In this document: positions 30,110-51,234 of the stretch, one piece after another | Layout of the letters: each line of letters opens with the position of its first letter | How positions within the stretch are numbered: position 1 is the stretch's first letter | Source: Eledone cirrhosa | Lineage: Eukaryota | Direction: 5' to 3' | Length of the DNA: 64,000 nucleotides | Assembly: GCA_964016885.1 (NCBI GenBank) | Contig: OZ024742.1 | Span: 312,170,001 to 312,234,000 of the forward strand | Translations under genes and position numbers: made by a program | The notes under the pieces: generated by a model | What the model was told of the DNA's origin: nothing | What the model saw: the letters and a program-made list of their open reading frames with translations, nothing else | Database searches by the model: none

Positions 30110-30234
30110 GACCATCATAGACCATTACATGAAAACTTCACTAAAATGCTAGCTTGCTTTTAGAAAGTTATAGCAACCAAGATATGAGTTCAAAAGCATC
30201 AAACTCAATCATTAGACAAGTTGAAGAGTTGTAC

Positions 30235-30352
30235 ATATATACATACATACACACACACACATATATATATATATACACACACCCATATATATATATATAT
30301 ATACACACCCATATATATATATACACCCATATATATATATACATACACACAC

Positions 30353-30416
<64 letters not shown>

Positions 30417-30548
30417 CCATATATATATATATATATACACACACCCATATATATATATATATATACACACACCCATATATATATATATATACACACACCC
30501 ATATATATATATATATATATACACCCATATATATATATATACATACAC

Positions 30549-30582
<34 letters not shown>

Positions 30583-30736
30583 CCATATATATATATATAT
30601 ACATACACCCATATATATATATATATATATACACCCATATATATATATATACATACACCCATATATATATATACATACACCCATATATATATATATATAT
30701 ACACACCCATATATATATATATATATATATACACCC

Positions 30737-30811
<75 letters not shown>

Positions 30812-30838
30812 CATATATATATATATATATATATACAC

Positions 30839-30873
<35 letters not shown>

Positions 30874-30942
30874 AATACACACACACACATGCATATATAT
30901 ATCTATATATATATACATATACATACATACATATATATATAT
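30235..30942. repeat. Compound minisatellite [(AC)1-4 CC (AT)n]
   Basis: About 20 units of acaccc(at)n. Source of the HPYIYI ORFs. Confidence 0.95.
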
Positions 30943-32419
30943 GGAAAGCAAAAACAAGAGAAAAATATAGCTGAAAAAGGTCAATAAAGGAGTATATACT
31001 GTCATACAATACTTCCCAGATTCTCATGTAATACCAACTTGTGTGTATATGAAGCATATATCTACAGAGCAAAATTGATTATATAAACATAAATATACAT
31101 ATATACACACATATCGATGTGTATAAGCCTGTATACATATGCATGTATGTGTGACTGTATATTTATATAGATAGATAAATACGTGTGCGTATGCAATGTG
31201 TAAATAGGGAGAGAGAGAGAGAGAGAGAGATTCAATATCACTATTCTCTTTTCTCTTCAAAAGAAAGATTCAAAGAAACATATATGAAAAGAAAATGCAT
31301 TCTTCCAAGAATAGACTTGAAGATGATTTCCAAATCAGATTTTCATTTGGCATTTGCTAACATACCCAACACAAATCAGACATTAAAGGAACACACTCAC
31401 ATACACATTTGCAGCAATGTTTTCTATGTGTGTATATTCCTTGTATGTATGTATGTATGTACAAATGTGTATATATATAAGTATGGATGTATATGCACAT
31501 ATATAAAAATTGTCTTTAGACACATATACAAACTTTCAGCAAAGGGGTGGTGGCTGAACTTTTTCATGGAAGACACAACCATACAAAAGAAAAAAATACA
31601 CATAATCACAGACAAAAATAAGTTAAACATGAAATGCTTATCTATTAATAACATTCTACATCCATCAATGGGTGATTAGGTATTTTGACATTGGTCAATA
31701 GGAGGAAGTGAGAAGGTAATTGGATTATATGATGTTTCACTACACCATCCATTGCTCCCATGGGCATTAGCAAAATAACTGAAGTAAAATTGTCTGGAAT
31801 TAGCATGGCTATGAAAACAAGGGAGGTTACTCTACATCGAGAAGCCTAGTAAATGCAAAATAAGAATGAATTGTTAGATAGTATAGTTATAATTAAAGTA
31901 AAAAAATAAAAAAATAAAAAATAAAGCAAACACTGCCAAAAGGCTTTGATTGCAGAATACAAAGGGGTATAACTAAATACTGTAAGGTATTTTAAGTTAA
32001 GTATATATCAACATGTTTGTTAATCTACCAGCCTTCTTCCACAGGTATTAACCCTTTTAACCCTTTTACCTGAAACTGGTCCTGGTTCTACAATAGAAAA
32101 CTGTTTGTTTTAAAATGTTTAAATGTTTATATTTATCTACAAGCCTTCCATCATAATTTTATGTAAGAACCTTTGCTAAGTTATGTTCCAAACATCAATT
32201 TAATAATAAGAAAGTTAGTTATATTATTAAATTCCTGATTATTTTAAAAATCCTATAAGCAGTGGCTTCCATTAAAAATATGGCAATGAAGGGTTAATAT
32301 TATTAGTTTTTAAAGTTTAGCACACACTAAGAAAGTTGTAAAGAAAATAGTATAATCGACTGAAATATATTCAATACATTACTGGCTCTTATATGGGGAG
32401 CCAATGAGGAAGCTTTTAC

Positions 32420-39372: not shown

Positions 39373-40872
39373 CTAATCTATAGGTTCGATTTTTGGTTGT
39401 TTGAGAGCAGTATAACTAGGTTTACTGGTATACTTGGCAAGCATTTCATCAACATTAATGTGATCTTCCAATGTTACTTTGTACCCTGGTACCTGTAATT
39501 CCACAGTACCCTTGTCTCCTAAATCCTGCGTAATGCTTACCATTCCATTGAGGGTGGACTTGCCTTTATTCTTCCCACTGCTGGGTACAATAGGCAACTT
39601 TGATATATCTACCTCTATGTCTAAACCATTATAGCCACTAGCTCTGATAAAGGCATTCACCTGGAAATCGTCAATGCCGATGACGTCACACTCATGCTGT
39701 GACGACGCACATCCTCGGTTGTAGCTACTATTCAAAGTCCCTGATGTCATGTGACCACTATTGTCGCAGCCTATAGATCGAGAGCCCTGCCCAGGGAAAC
39801 AGCTGTATTTTTCACGCATTACCAATGCATCCGAGTTGAAACAGGTTGGGGTTTCACACCCACTGGGTGAACTTCCACACATTGGAGCCAGCGACCTGCT
39901 ACAAGATGGAAGCCTCTGTCTATTTTGCAAAAGATCCTGTTGGGAGCGCCGTTTCATAAATGGCATATCCTTTTGAAATGAGTTTGCACCAAAGTCTGAA
40001 GCCATTCTCTGGTGCGTGGAGGAGAGTCCATGAGTTGGCGGCGGAGGGGGAGGCCAGGATGGCGATGGCCGGAGAAGATCAGTGGGACTGGACACAACAG
40101 ATGGTCTTGCAAATGAACCAGGCATCCATGGATACCTGAACGGGTTATTACTACAGCTACCCATCTGAAATGGACTTGGTAAACTTGAGTTGGCAGCTAA
40201 ACTGCTGCTAGGGAACATATTGATTGGATAAGGTCCAGTGTGAGCACCTCCCATATATGGATTCATCCTTGATGGGATGACTGGGTCATGATGCAATGGA
40301 ATTGAGGGCGAACTACCAGTAAAAGCTCTCGAATCAAGATCTGGATGGTGGTACATGGACGAGAGCCCTTGAAAGTCATTTGAAGACGTCCCTGAAGTAG
40401 TTTGCGTTAGGCTGGTTCGGATACTAAGGTCCGTTGGTGTGGCAACGCCAAGTCCTGACTGCAAGTTCAGAGCAGACATAGAAACATTCTCCTTTGGGCT
40501 CATGCTCCGTGGTTTGCTCCTCAAGTAGACACACTTGCGGTAGACACATGTCTGCTTTAAGACATCCCTTCGCAGGCAGTAGTGACAACGGCCGCAGTTC
40601 TGCTTGATTTGACATGGACCACAAATTCCACAGCGCCGCCTCCGTTTCAATTTCACTTTTACATTGTGGTGGTCATGCTCCACTTCCCTGATAATATCCG
40701 GCCCAGTGGGGCTTAAATCACTGTCTACTTCAATAACGTACTCTTCTTCTTCTGCTCCATGGTGATGACCAGAATGGTGATGGTGACCAGCAATATGAGG
40801 GTGGACTGACTCAGACTTCATTTCCTCAGGTCGATGACCACCATGTGACATACTAAGAGGGGCCACTCCAAT
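39373..40872 (-). CDS. Terminal coding exon (499 codons + TAG) of a zf-CXXC zinc-finger protein; may be the only coding exon if translation starts at ATG 40851 (MSHGGHRPEE..., 492 aa)
   Basis: Long, non-repetitive ORF, GC-richer than its flanks. It is preceded by a pyrimidine tract and acceptor (tttttctttctgtttcag|ATT, AG at 40874-40873). It contains CGICGPCQIKQNCGRCHYC-x9-CVYRKC. The first 29 aa of the track ORF translate the intronic pyrimidine tract. ATG 40851 has A at -3. Confidence 0.93.
   Translation of the reverse strand: MGVAPLSMSHGGHRPEEMKSESVHPHIAGHHHHSGHHHGAEEEEYVIEVDSDLSPTGPDIIREVEHDHHNVKVKLKRRRRCGICGPCQIKQNCGRCHYCLRRDVLKQTCVYRKCVYLRSKPRSMSPKENVSMSALNLQSGLGVATPTDLSIRTSLTQTTSGTSSNDFQGLSSMYHHPDLDSRAFTGSSPSIPLHHDPVIPSRMNPYMGGAHTGPYPINMFPSSSLAANSSLPSPFQMGSCSNNPFRYPWMPGSFARPSVVSSPTDLLRPSPSWPPPPPPTHGLSSTHQRMASDFGANSFQKDMPFMKRRSQQDLLQNRQRLPSCSRSLAPMCGSSPSGCETPTCFNSDALVMREKYSCFPGQGSRSIGCDNSGHMTSGTLNSSYNRGCASSQHECDVIGIDDFQVNAFIRASGYNGLDIEVDISKLPIVPSSGKNKGKSTLNGMVSITQDLGDKGTVELQVPGYKVTLEDHINVDEMLAKYTSKPSYTALKQPKIEPID
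40531..40644 (-). other. zf-CXXC domain (RRRRCGICGPCQIKQNCGRCHYCLRRDVLKQTCVYRKC)
   Basis: Eight Cys in CxxCxxC-x5-CxxCxxC-x9-CxxRxC spacing, preceded by a basic run that is also NLS-like (KVKLKRRRR). Confidence 0.92.
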
Positions 40873-42944
40873 CTGAAACAGAAAGAAAAATTGAACGTTA
40901 ATAACGTCAAATAATCTACAAAATAAAATAAAAAACAAAACAAAACAAACAATAAACATACATCAATGTACAATATTTTCTACAACCTTAGCAAAATAAA
41001 GAAATAATAATTCATTTTTTTCTCCATGTTTGAAAACAAAGATGAAAATTCTATTTGGGTGGAAGAATATGATTATAGTTTGTTTAAGGAAATTTGTACA
41101 CTAAATACAATGAGCAGAACCTATTTAACTTTCTGGAGGCTGAATTTCTTTATGAATTGCTTCCTTTGATACTGTCATCATCATCATCATCATCGTTTAA
41201 CGTCTATCTTCCACGCTAGCATTATGTATTATGTATTAAAGAGAGATTACTCTATCGGCGACACAAGTTGCCCTCAGCCCCAAGAAGGTTAATTATATAT
41301 ATTAGGGAAACATAAAAGATAGTGTGTTTAAGACATAGCCTGTCTATAAATAAAATAAACATCTCTGCAGTCATAGGTGTATGGTTAAGGAGTTTGTTTT
41401 GCAGCCATGTAATTTTGAGTTTAGTCTTATTGTGTGGTACCTTGAGCAATGGACTTCTACTATATTTTCAAAGTGACCAATGTCAAGAGAGTGAAATTTG
41501 GTAGGCAGAAACTGTAGAAGTCCATTGTGTGTGTGCGCGCGCGCATCAGTGTTTGTGTCCTGTAACTTAGTGGTTTGCAAAAAAAAAAAAAAAAAAGTGC
41601 CAACTTTGAAAAATAAGTGCAAGGGCCATGAAAAACTAAAACACTATAAATCAGTGCTCCAGCATGGCCACGTCCAATGGACTAGGTCTGATAAATGAGT
41701 ATATGTTTAGTCATAAGAAAAGTCAGGTCTGGAGATCACGTCATACAGATCTATATTTTGACTTGGTTTCTACAGTTGGACATCCTTCCTAACACCAACC
41801 ATGTGTTAACTGGGTGCTTTTGTTATGTCACCAGCGCAACCACCTTACAGTGTGGACTGGGTGCTTTTTGTCATGTTACTAGCACAACCACCTTATAGGG
41901 AGGACTGGGTGCTTTTATTGTGGCACCAATATATATATATATATACATATGTACACAAATATGCATCATCAGACAATGTAAACATAGGGAAAAGACAAGC
42001 TTATCTCTGTTAACTATTATAAGAGGCTCAAATACATTTTTGGCCATTTAAACAATGAAAGACAGATAGTTATGAAAAGGTAACCAGGGTAAAGTATGAC
42101 CAACAAGAGAAAGACATGGGATGTATATATATACATCAATCATTATCACCATTTAACATCCAATTTCCCCACACTGGCATGGGTTAGACAAGTGATCCTG
42201 TTGTGAGCAATGTCAGGTCAGATGACCATGTCTTGCACATACAGAACTGATTTTTGCTTGGTTTCTACAGTTGGATGCCCGCCCTAGCGCCAACCTCATT
42301 TAAGGTGAGTACTTGGTGCTTTTTGTTGTGTCGCCTACATGACCACTTTACAGTATAGACTGGATTTTTTGTTATAACACCAATATATATATATATATAG
42401 TAGTACATCGAAATAGTAAGTGCATTGCAGCAATACAAGTCGAATTATCAATAATACGAGAAATAAATTCCTAGCAACAGAGTGGACTTTTTACAGGGAA
42501 ACACCATGAACAATATTTTGACCACATGTATGCCACGTACAACAGATAACAACAACAACAATAAATACCAAAGGGGAAAGAACAGTTTCTGACACACTAT
42601 ATATATATACAAAGACATATTATTATTATTATAATCTTGGTTTCAGTCCACTGTTGCTTTAGGTATGTTAAGGGGAAAAGATTCTATAAATGGTTTAATT
42701 TTTTTTTTTCCAACTCAACTTCACATTACCTGAAGCTGGGGTTCCATGCAGTGGCAACTGGTCTTGGAGAATCACCAAGTGAAATTCTTGCCTGAGACTG
42801 TTACCGACTACACCTTTGCTGTTTCCACCCCCTGTAAGGAAACTAAAGCAAGTTTTCCATATTAGCTAGGTATGTTGGAAATGTAAATGGCTTTTGTTGC
42901 TTTTGTTCTAGTGAATATTGCTACTACTGTTACCATTATTGATA

Positions 42945-43492
42945 ATAATTGTTTCTACTTTTGGCACAAGGCCAGCAATTACCCAGTACATTACTGGTAC
43001 TTTATTTTATCGACCCCGTAAGGATGAAAGGCAAAGTTAGCCTCGGCGGGATTTGAACGTAAAGGGACGTAACTATGCTGGTAAGCATGTCCGACGTTCT
43101 ACCGATACTGCCAAAATGATATCTAATTTTGGCACAAGGCCAGGCCAGTAATTTGTGGAAAGGGGAAAGTTGACTATATCAACCCAGTACTTAACTGGTA
43201 CTTTTATTTTATTAACCCTAGAAGGACGAAAGGCAAAGTTGACTTCAGCACGATTTGAACTTAGAACGTAGAAAATAGAACTATATACTGCAAAGCATAA
43301 GGCCAAAATTTTGGGGGATGAGAAAGTAAATTAAATCAACCCCAGTGTATTACTGGTACTTTATTCTATCAAACCTGTAAGGATGAAAGGCAAAGCTAAT
43401 CTCAGGATTTGAACTAAGAATGTAAAGGGACATAACTATATGCTGCAAAGCATGTTGTGGTGACACTATCGATATTGCCAATACACCACCCT
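42945..43492 (-). mobile_element. Three head-to-tail SINE family 1 copies
   Basis: Copies at ~42945-43093, 43120-43300 and 43300-43492. Other family-1 copies lie at 1-92, 9890-10200, 13400-13540, 16570-16822, 26410-26565, 32780-32935, 45780-45925, 47215-47430, 49645-49870 and 53600-53740. Confidence 0.87.
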
Positions 43493-49134: not shown

Positions 49135-51234
49135 GAACTATGTTAACGAAAGTTTTAAATCCATGCCAAATGCAACAATGTATAATAATTAGTTTTTTTC
49201 TTTCTTTGTGAGAGAGAATTTGATCTTAGAACTCTAAAACCACAACTGCTTATCAATTTCTTTACAAGTTTACTTTTACAATGTGTGACAGCCATCAATC
49301 AAGAGAACCAGGTCAAGAACAATGGTGAATTATAAGAGAAATATATGGAGAGATGTGATAGGAACTAATCCAACATTATCCACTCAGCTATTGAAACACT
49401 TCAATCAACCATTAAAATAAGATAACTTTTTTTTTCTTTTAAAATTCAATTGAACAGTTCACATTTTCTTTTTGTTCATTGGATTTTGTCTGAACAAGAA
49501 GTTTTTCAAAGCTAAAGCTTAAAGACAATTCTATCAAATTATCAAGAGAAGAAAAAAATGCTTTAAGATCAGAAGAGATTTGATTCTACTTAATAACAGA
49601 TACCAAATCCCTTCAGATCACACAACTAAAATAATAATAATAATAATTTCTTACATTGTCACAAGGCCACAAATATGTAGAGGAGGGGTATAGTCGATTG
49701 ATTTGACCCCAGTACATAACTGGTGCTTATTTTTTTAAATCAAGATCAGAGGGATGAAAGGCTAACTTGATTTCCAGCAGGATTTGAACTCAGAACATAA
49801 AAGGACACAACCAAATACTGCAGGGCATTTGGTCTGATGCTCTACTATTTCTTTGCCACTTCATCACCCTAAATATAAACAACAACAACAATCATAATAA
49901 TAATAATAATAATAATAATGATGATAATAATAATAAGGATGATAATAATAATGAGGATGATAATAATAAGGATGATAATAAAAATTATAATAATAATCTT
50001 ATGAATTATCGAAGCACTGGGAGTTTGAAACTTGAAAATTTGAGAGTCCAGAACATAAAAAATAACTGTAATAACAGTTGATCAGTATAGATAATAGGTG
50101 AGAAAATTGGGTGAATAACCTTTGGAGATACGAAAAAGTGGATCTAGGTGCCTCTGTCCACATTTTCCCATCTTTAGCTGTATGTAATTCAGCCAATTTT
50201 CTCATCTATTATCTATAGTTGTTCGATTCTTTTACAGTTATTTTCTAAGTTTGGGACTCTCACATTTCCAAATAATAAAAATAGTAATGAAAATAATAAA
50301 CTTGTAAATTATATCCTTAAAAAATACTTTAATAGTATAAAAAAAAAAACTACAAAGAAACCAGTTAAAGGAAATATAAATATATATATATATAAAGTAA
50401 GACTTTATTAGAAGAAGAAAATGAGGATTTTAAGAGGGTAAGAGAAAGTAAAGACAGGCAAACAGGCAGACAGACAATAGCTGTATAGACATGACTGACA
50501 AAGGGATCCAGCTTTGTGCAGCTGATAATGTTAATGGATTGAGTCAAGGATTGGAACTATGACTGTCAAGAGACAAGATGACAGATTACAAATATTGTTA
50601 GCAGTATCCTTTTGTTAGCTCTGTGTAGTGTGTGTGATGTAATGTGTGTGTATGCTGTGATGTGTGAGTGTGTGTGGTATATGGTATGTGTGTATGTGTG
50701 TGTGTGGATGATGTGTGATGTGTGTGTGCATAGTGTGTATGGTATGATGTGTGTGTGATATAGTGTGATGTTTGTGTGTGTGTGTGAGTGATAGTGTGAT
50801 GGGTGTGTGTGTGGTGTAGGTGTATGTGTGTGGTGTAGGTGTATGTGTGTGGTGTGGGTGTGAGGTGTGTGGTTGGTGTATGTGTATATGCAAGCTCCTG
50901 GTCTGTCTTCCTCTTTGCACGTGTACAGAATAAAAATACTAAACGGAAAATGGCAGCAATTTCGAAGAATAATGGTGGTGGTGGTGGTGGTGGTGGTAAT
51001 GATGCAGGAGGCAGTGGTGACAACCCCGACAATGGTGGTGGTGGTGGTGGTGGTGGTGGTGATGGCAGGGGACCATGTTGGTGCTGGTTGCAGTAGTGGT
51101 CATAATGATATTACCACCACCACTGGTCTTCAAATTTATGGTGATTGCAGATTCATCATGGCAAGAATATATTCAGTCCACAGATAAGTCACCTTGCTGG
51201 TTTATAGACAAAGAACAACCATTCTAGGACAATA

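Follow-up and report, generated by a model that had tools for sequence, protein, structure and literature searches.

CXXC4/IDAX and CXXC5 are short proteins that carry their CXXC finger at the C-terminus. CXXC5 is 322 residues long (PMC7136269). Their fingers, like those of TET1 and TET3, are described as type 3, with a short loop and an HQ dipeptide, whereas type-1 fingers have a long loop containing KFGG and the dipeptide KQ or RQ; the base-reading tripeptide (X-K/R-Q or S-H-Q) is blocked by methylation (Long et al., 2013; PMC3685328). Spiralian TET proteins are reported to have no CXXC finger, and demethylation in spiralians may consequently be untargeted (Guynes et al., 2024; PMC11292947).

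The locus described here lies in a 64,000-nucleotide stretch of Eledone cirrhosa DNA (contig OZ024742.1, positions 312,170,001 to 312,234,000; 'the window'). It is the single copy of an unnamed family present in octopods, bivalves, gastropods and a chiton. The protein resembles CXXC4/IDAX and CXXC5 in being non-catalytic and in having one short-loop finger (9-residue loop, no KFGG) followed by an L..KP tail. Unlike them, it has its finger near the N-terminus with 385 residues after it, reads LKQ instead of HQ, has an additional C-terminal domain and is not adjacent to TET (the IDAX gene lies beside TET); the named members of the family are molluscs. The finger aligns without gaps to the fingers of TET1, TET3 and invertebrate TET (53% identity to the TET1 finger), but the protein lacks a dioxygenase domain, is encoded at a separate locus and has no similarity to TET outside the finger. 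With type-1 fingers (CFP1, KDM2, MLL, DNMT1) it shares a K/R-Q tip following a hydrophobic residue [L-K-Q, compared with I-R-Q in CFP1 (PMC3685328)], but not the KFGG loop, nor the PHD, SET, JmjC, F-box, BAH or methylase domains of those proteins.

Gene structure and transcription

The main coding exon lies on the minus strand, between an acceptor (ttcag/ATT at 40872) and a TAG stop at 39373, with an open frame of 499 codons, or 492 counted from the first methionine (Table 1). Its product is 97% identical to Octopus bimaculoides LOC106871426. Among the exon substitutions in the rows listed, which leave out 261 further rows, 33 of 37 are at third codon positions, and the contigs show splicing at the GT-AG ends of the exon; both mark it as real and not a chance reading frame. 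The initial annotation had allowed that the locus might not be expressed; judged by the spliced joints in contigs, from sequencing runs that are only guessed to be RNA, it is transcribed. The locus is single-copy in the genome assembly (G000) with three queries (the whole protein, a C-terminal fragment and a two-finger relative), and the gene spans at least 188 kb.

The upstream exons contribute just 15 (exon A) and 21 (exon B) residues; in exon A, E. cirrhosa departs in sequence from the proteins in the databases. The X22 contig, identical to the window, continues past 40872 into exon A and has only 417 bases beyond that acceptor; the contigs cannot show a start. Octopod isoforms in the databases leave the main exon after residue 350, 404 or 420, each at an in-frame GT, and end in an 18-residue exon. 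This tail exon occurs once in the assembly, at G000:C3:312104877, some 105 kb downstream and with an AG acceptor. Contigs of runs X5 and X10 read through the internal donors, which fits the long form, but RNA that had not been spliced, or DNA, could also explain them. By using these donors, octopods can leave the C-terminal domain out of the product.

Table 1. Coordinates of the gene and protein features (window positions unless stated otherwise; residues numbered along the main exon).
Feature	Position	Strand	Description	Support or conservation
Main coding exon	39373..40872	-	499 codons + stop; holds finger, linker and C-terminal domain	Spliced contigs X1, X10 and X22 end at 40872
Upstream exon B, coding part	49655..49717	-	21 aa, then GT donor	X1 contig: 49656-49801 joined to 40872
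Upstream exon A	G000:C3:312293354-312293310 (outside window)	-	15 aa, 82 kb upstream	Reached via X22 contig end
His-rich tract	40756..40800	-	aa 25-39	Alignment: octopod rows only
Acidic motif EEEEYVIEVD	40723..40752	-	aa 41-50; second half of an N-terminal motif common to bivalve-type members	Mean identity 0.38 to 17 relatives
zf-CXXC finger and basic flanks	40501..40653	-	aa 74-124; Cys1-Cys8 = 40632-40531; 9-residue loop without KFGG, LKQ tip	Mean identity 0.75 to 17 relatives
Pro/Ser-rich linker	39700..40500	-	aa 125-391; low pLDDT in model	Mean identity 0.19 (17 relatives)
PTDLS, presumed CtBP-type	40423..40437	-	aa 146-150	Position not conserved outside octopods
C-terminal domain part 1	39610..39699	-	aa 392-421; three predicted beta-strands	Mean identity 0.55 (17 relatives)
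C-terminal domain part 2	39376..39564	-	aa 437-499; predicted strands and helix, final stretch diverged in octopus	Mean identity 0.46 over aa 437-482
Internal in-frame GT donor 1	39821..39822	-	After aa 350; removes entire C-terminal domain	Isoform proteins P0004, P0005, P0023, P0024; X6 and X9 contigs end at 39823
Internal in-frame GT donor 2	39659..39660	-	After aa 404; joins 18-aa tail exon	X1 loose end at 39661 matches tail exon; P0027-P0029, P0032
Internal in-frame GT donor 3	39611..39612	-	After aa 420	Argonauta gene model only (P0025); no contig support in this genome

Layout of the protein

The features that the initial annotation had read in the N-terminal part and middle of the protein are all present: a His tract (11 His in residues 1-40), an acidic patch, one zf-CXXC finger, a long linker of which 31% is Pro and Ser, and, as estimated, 385 residues counted exactly from the last finger Cys. 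The finger (PF02008; 29.7 bits against a cut-off of 26.5) is the sole Pfam match at E ≤ 1, in agreement with the earlier description of a standalone protein that has no catalytic domain and matches no canonical family architecture. Its eight Cys fit the pattern CxxCxxC-x5-CxxCxxC-loop-Cx4C. We take the PTDLS sequence in the linker to be a CtBP-type motif. The full-length structure model has a pLDDT of 42.7 and is unusable.

The CXXC finger

All 31 distinct family fingers keep the eight Cys and KQ, the group having been selected by that signature, and in all of them the loop has 9 residues and lacks the long KFGG insertion of type 1. The finger therefore has one feature of each type: the KQ/RQ dipeptide of type 1, within an LKQ tip, and the truncated loop of type 3, whose HQ dipeptide is absent. 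The three best PDB matches of the family profile, all aligned gaplessly, are the fingers of CXXC5 (E 6.8e-7), TET1 and xtTet3, and among the PDB matches there is no solved example of a short loop together with LKQ. Identity to HQ fingers averages 52% over the Cys1-Cys8 core. Short-loop KQ/RQ fingers also occur outside the family (25 among 129 distinct fingers), one of them on an unnamed TET (P0331) and two on C2H2 proteins (P0247, P0269).

A tree of the fingers (48 columns) places the family outside the branch of TET and CXXC4/5 fingers with a support of only 81, and 66 of its 126 inner branches are open. In AU tests, which left out 5 long-branch or degenerate rows of the 129, monophyly of the family gives p 0.70 and a grouping of the family with CXXC4/5 gives p 0.29. 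Orthology to CXXC4/5, which the initial annotation had raised, fails on architecture and linkage, whereas the finger tree cannot reject it. The likeliest source of the family finger, at about even chances in our view, is the type-3 finger missing from spiralian TET, with the gene having since become independent. Since short-loop fingers are also found in non-TET proteins such as the C2H2 proteins P0247 and P0269, a non-TET origin is possible.

Several other fingers in the set are unusual. A clade of short-loop fingers (P0133, P0270, P0272, P0307, P0313 and P0317; support 100), one of them on a TET, has a VNAI tip in which the Gln is lost, and DNA reading may be altered in these fingers. P0282 combines a PHD, three CXXC fingers and a CENP-B/DDE transposase, while P0247 and P0269 pair a short-loop CXXC with C2H2 fingers.

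The C-terminal domain

The initial annotation had described a hydrophobic block of about 90 residues before the stop. The last 90 residues are not hydrophobic (GRAVY -0.46) and belong to an acidic two-part domain of about 108 residues with a core net charge of -9 in octopus. Two conserved blocks are separated by 15-144 variable residues, and four columns are invariant (D17, N31, I35 and G71). The domain is predicted to be beta-rich: its AlphaFold model has beta-strands and one helix with good local confidence, but the model as a whole is weak (pLDDT 68.7, pTM 0.30) and not compact. The conserved Asp residues could be catalytic or metal-binding. An internal repeat between the two halves, or between a half and the N-terminal motif, was considered and is not supported.

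No profile match to the domain was found in Pfam or PDB, and no usable one in the ESM Atlas. With the non-compact model, Foldseek gave 0 of 343 matches at E ≤ 0.001 (best E 1.2) and a VIA fold search gave 7 of 48,161 chains at Z ≥ 2 and none at Z ≥ 5 (best Z 2.4); because the model is not compact, the absence of a fold match is not evidence of a new fold.

Range of the family

The first protein search gave 20 matches among 6217 candidates, and all five named ones are molluscs. A HMMER scan of 1.84 billion representatives gave 127 matches; a profile search with 19 family members gave 19 matches among 7998 scored candidates, none of them new. Of the stored proteins, 110 carry the finger signature, and 35 of these are non-redundant. 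Among the 35 representatives, 26 have both halves of the C-terminal domain, one has a single half and eight have none. There are 17-133 residues ahead of the finger in members and, in 34 of the 35 representatives, 373-1206 after it. Full-length relatives share start and end in the alignment, and Pfam finds zf-CXXC alone in the long members scanned. A divergent member of 424 residues (P0238) has both finger and domain.

Organism names rest on 28 proteins, most of the distant matches carrying none. The named members come from octopods (three Octopus species and Argonauta), bivalves (Tegillarca, Saccostrea, Crassostrea, four scallops, Pinctada and five Mytilus), gastropods (four Haliotis, Lottia, Patella with two copies, and Elysia) and a chiton (Liolophura); no annelid or brachiopod was found among the 28. 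The lineage restriction proposed in the initial annotation is borne out, but the lineage is wider than octopus: it takes in Mollusca and perhaps extends further into Spiralia. The finger signature, without the C-terminal domain, is also present in Dicyema japonicum (P0234), which points either to an origin in Spiralia or to a transfer from its host.

The gene is duplicated in Tegillarca (P0007/P0033, models KUTeg_023634 and _023638 of identical length) and in Patella (P0229/P0344, two sequences). A further protein, filed under O. sinensis (P0223; LOC115228573, on a 485-kb scaffold), has two fingers and groups with the finger of Dicyema (support 82). Its only counterpart in the G000 assembly is the family locus, and P0223 may be dicyemid parasite DNA within the O. 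sinensis assembly.

In the databases, family members are labelled Methylcytosine dioxygenase TET1, TET3-like, MLL1 or mucin. No title or abstract opening seen in the literature describes the family, and supplements, de Mendoza (2019) or Gerdol (2021) may list its proteins; in the available text of a cephalopod survey (PMC9476566) the term CXXC does not occur. The family is apparently an undescribed variant of the standalone CXXC readers, with members already in public databases, where they are uncharacterised or mislabelled. The labels TET1, TET3-like and MLL1 could inflate counts in surveys of methylation genes in molluscs.

Relation to TET and other CXXC loci

In the G000 assembly the catalytic exons of TET are at C3:245.17 Mb (plus strand) and the family gene is at C3:312.21 Mb (minus strand), 67 Mb apart. 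A CXXC search gave nothing near TET at E ≤ 10, and with the TET1 finger as query the family locus alone was matched; such searches could miss an intron-split finger. Outside the finger, there is no similarity to octopus TET (hhalign probability 0.2%), and no Tet_JBP catalytic domain was found in the protein or gene. In all 13 other species compared (O. vulgaris, Argonauta, Pecten, Pinctada, three Mytilus, two Haliotis, Patella, Saccostrea echinata, Mizuhopecten and Ylistrum), the family gene and TET are on sequences of different length, assuming that both records come from one assembly; in ten of the 13 pairs the sequences exceed 35 Mb. The initial annotation had asked whether the exon might be a TET 5' isoform or acquire a catalytic domain from upstream exons. 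A TET isoform is ruled out by the distant locus and by upstream exons that add so few residues, and an IDAX-like neighbour of TET by the separation here and in the 13 other species.

None of 29 named mollusc TET proteins, some of them partial models, has a finger, in agreement with the report on spiralian TETs (PMC11292947), while 7 other rows among the 120 listed do carry one; P0331, with its short-loop KQ finger, is an unnamed TET. The distribution is complementary: these 29 named mollusc TETs are fingerless, and the family finger is the only short-loop finger found in the E. cirrhosa assembly. Four further CXXC loci are present there (L006, L007, L009 and L010/L011), of which three show KFGG and one is cut by an exon end before the loop. 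By their motifs, they are probably KDM2, DNMT1, MLL and CFP1. The last exon of octopus TET (L003:25-1995) contains PLDLS, presumably also a CtBP-type motif, inside a low-complexity insert.

Proposed function

The protein is probably non-catalytic and reads unmethylated CpG, with its C-terminal domain serving as an adaptor. Judging from its residues, the finger would be held by two zinc ions and likely binds unmethylated CpG DNA, the L-K-Q tripeptide entering the major groove, in which it would collide with a 5-methyl group; strictness for CpG may be relaxed by the short loop, for which TET3 is a precedent. The linker probably serves as a flexible tether, and the acidic C-terminal domain probably recruits a second protein or pairs with one. 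The whole would then be a reader and adaptor at unmethylated promoters, although the weak domain model and the lack of a fold match leave this adaptor role as something we infer. Confident strands in a non-compact model weakly suggest that the domain folds only with a partner or with a second copy of itself. In the short isoforms of octopods the finger is retained and the domain is gone; these forms would sit on the same sites as non-recruiting competitors. The window has CpG observed/expected ratios of 0.18-0.48 per 8 kb and the upstream stretches (L021-L040) have ratios of 0.20-0.69, with GpC near 1, which fits a methylated genome and gene-body methylation.

Three other readings of the locus are compatible with this reader role. 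Molluscs, or perhaps spiralians, might have evolved an IDAX of their own, in which a finger left TET, changed chromosome, gained the C-terminal domain and now acts in trans, binding the fingerless TET and targeting it to unmethylated DNA or controlling its level, with octopods switching the domain by splicing within the exon. The complementary distribution of the family finger and the fingerless TETs, including those reported from spiralians (PMC11292947), and the precedent of TET2 and IDAX (PMC3685328; PMC8286816) speak for such a history; yet the gene does not adjoin TET in any species compared, resembles it nowhere outside the finger, has an LKQ tip in place of HQ and has no named annelid or brachiopod member although the TETs of those groups are reportedly fingerless too, and we consider it unlikely. 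Coupling to a co-repressor, as proposed in the initial annotation, would have the reader silence CpG-rich promoters through CtBP or Groucho. Besides PTDLS in octopus, PxDLS-like motifs occur in Patella and in an unnamed member of gastropod type, while one unnamed member of bivalve type has an eh1-like motif. Strict PxDLS occurs in 3 of 35 representatives against 0.3 expected, a pattern defined after seeing the data, but the looser PxDL[ST] is likewise present in 3 of 35, where shuffled sequences would give 1.7, the motif positions differ, 32 of the 35 have none, and CXXC5 itself had no intrinsic repressor activity in a Gal4 assay (PMC7136269). The proposed coupling is thus not upheld, and we regard it as rather improbable. 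Scans for further motifs found WRPW, HP1, SUMO, LxCxE and Dvl at or below chance, and LxxLL (11 against 5.0 expected) and PPxY (16 against 8.2 expected) above it.

The domain might instead fold back onto the finger and damp its binding to DNA, to be released by splicing in octopods. The charges would suit this, with 16 K/R against 1 D/E in the finger region and a domain core of net charge -5 to -15 in 44 of 44 rows, as would the three internal donors that remove the domain; the conserved pattern of beta-strands and Gly/Pro turns, however, exceeds what a charge sink would need, and autoinhibition seems to us a long shot. It is scarcely credible that the open frame is an artefact or the 5' part of a canonical CXXC gene such as TET or MLL. 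The database labels (Methylcytosine dioxygenase TET1, TET3-like, MLL1) would favour it, but the exon ends in a stop of its own, the tail exon is short, little is added upstream, TET and the four other CXXC loci are elsewhere in the assembly, and full-length relatives share start and end.

The family offers a concrete candidate answer to what became of the TET-type finger, or to what reads unmethylated DNA in its stead, and the argument for untargeted demethylation can thereby be put to the test in oyster, mussel or octopus. A conserved domain without known relatives and a finger that pairs a short loop with a KQ tip are further additions.

Other features of the window

Long open reading frames at 557-2809, 30145-31078 and 42942-43400 of the window, where there are simple repeats (positions 1001-2000 are AT-rich, GC 0.04) and, near 43000, a very abundant interspersed repeat, are probably not genes. 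In the upstream stretches (L021-L040), several long open reading frames resemble, as judged by eye, LINE and transposase proteins.
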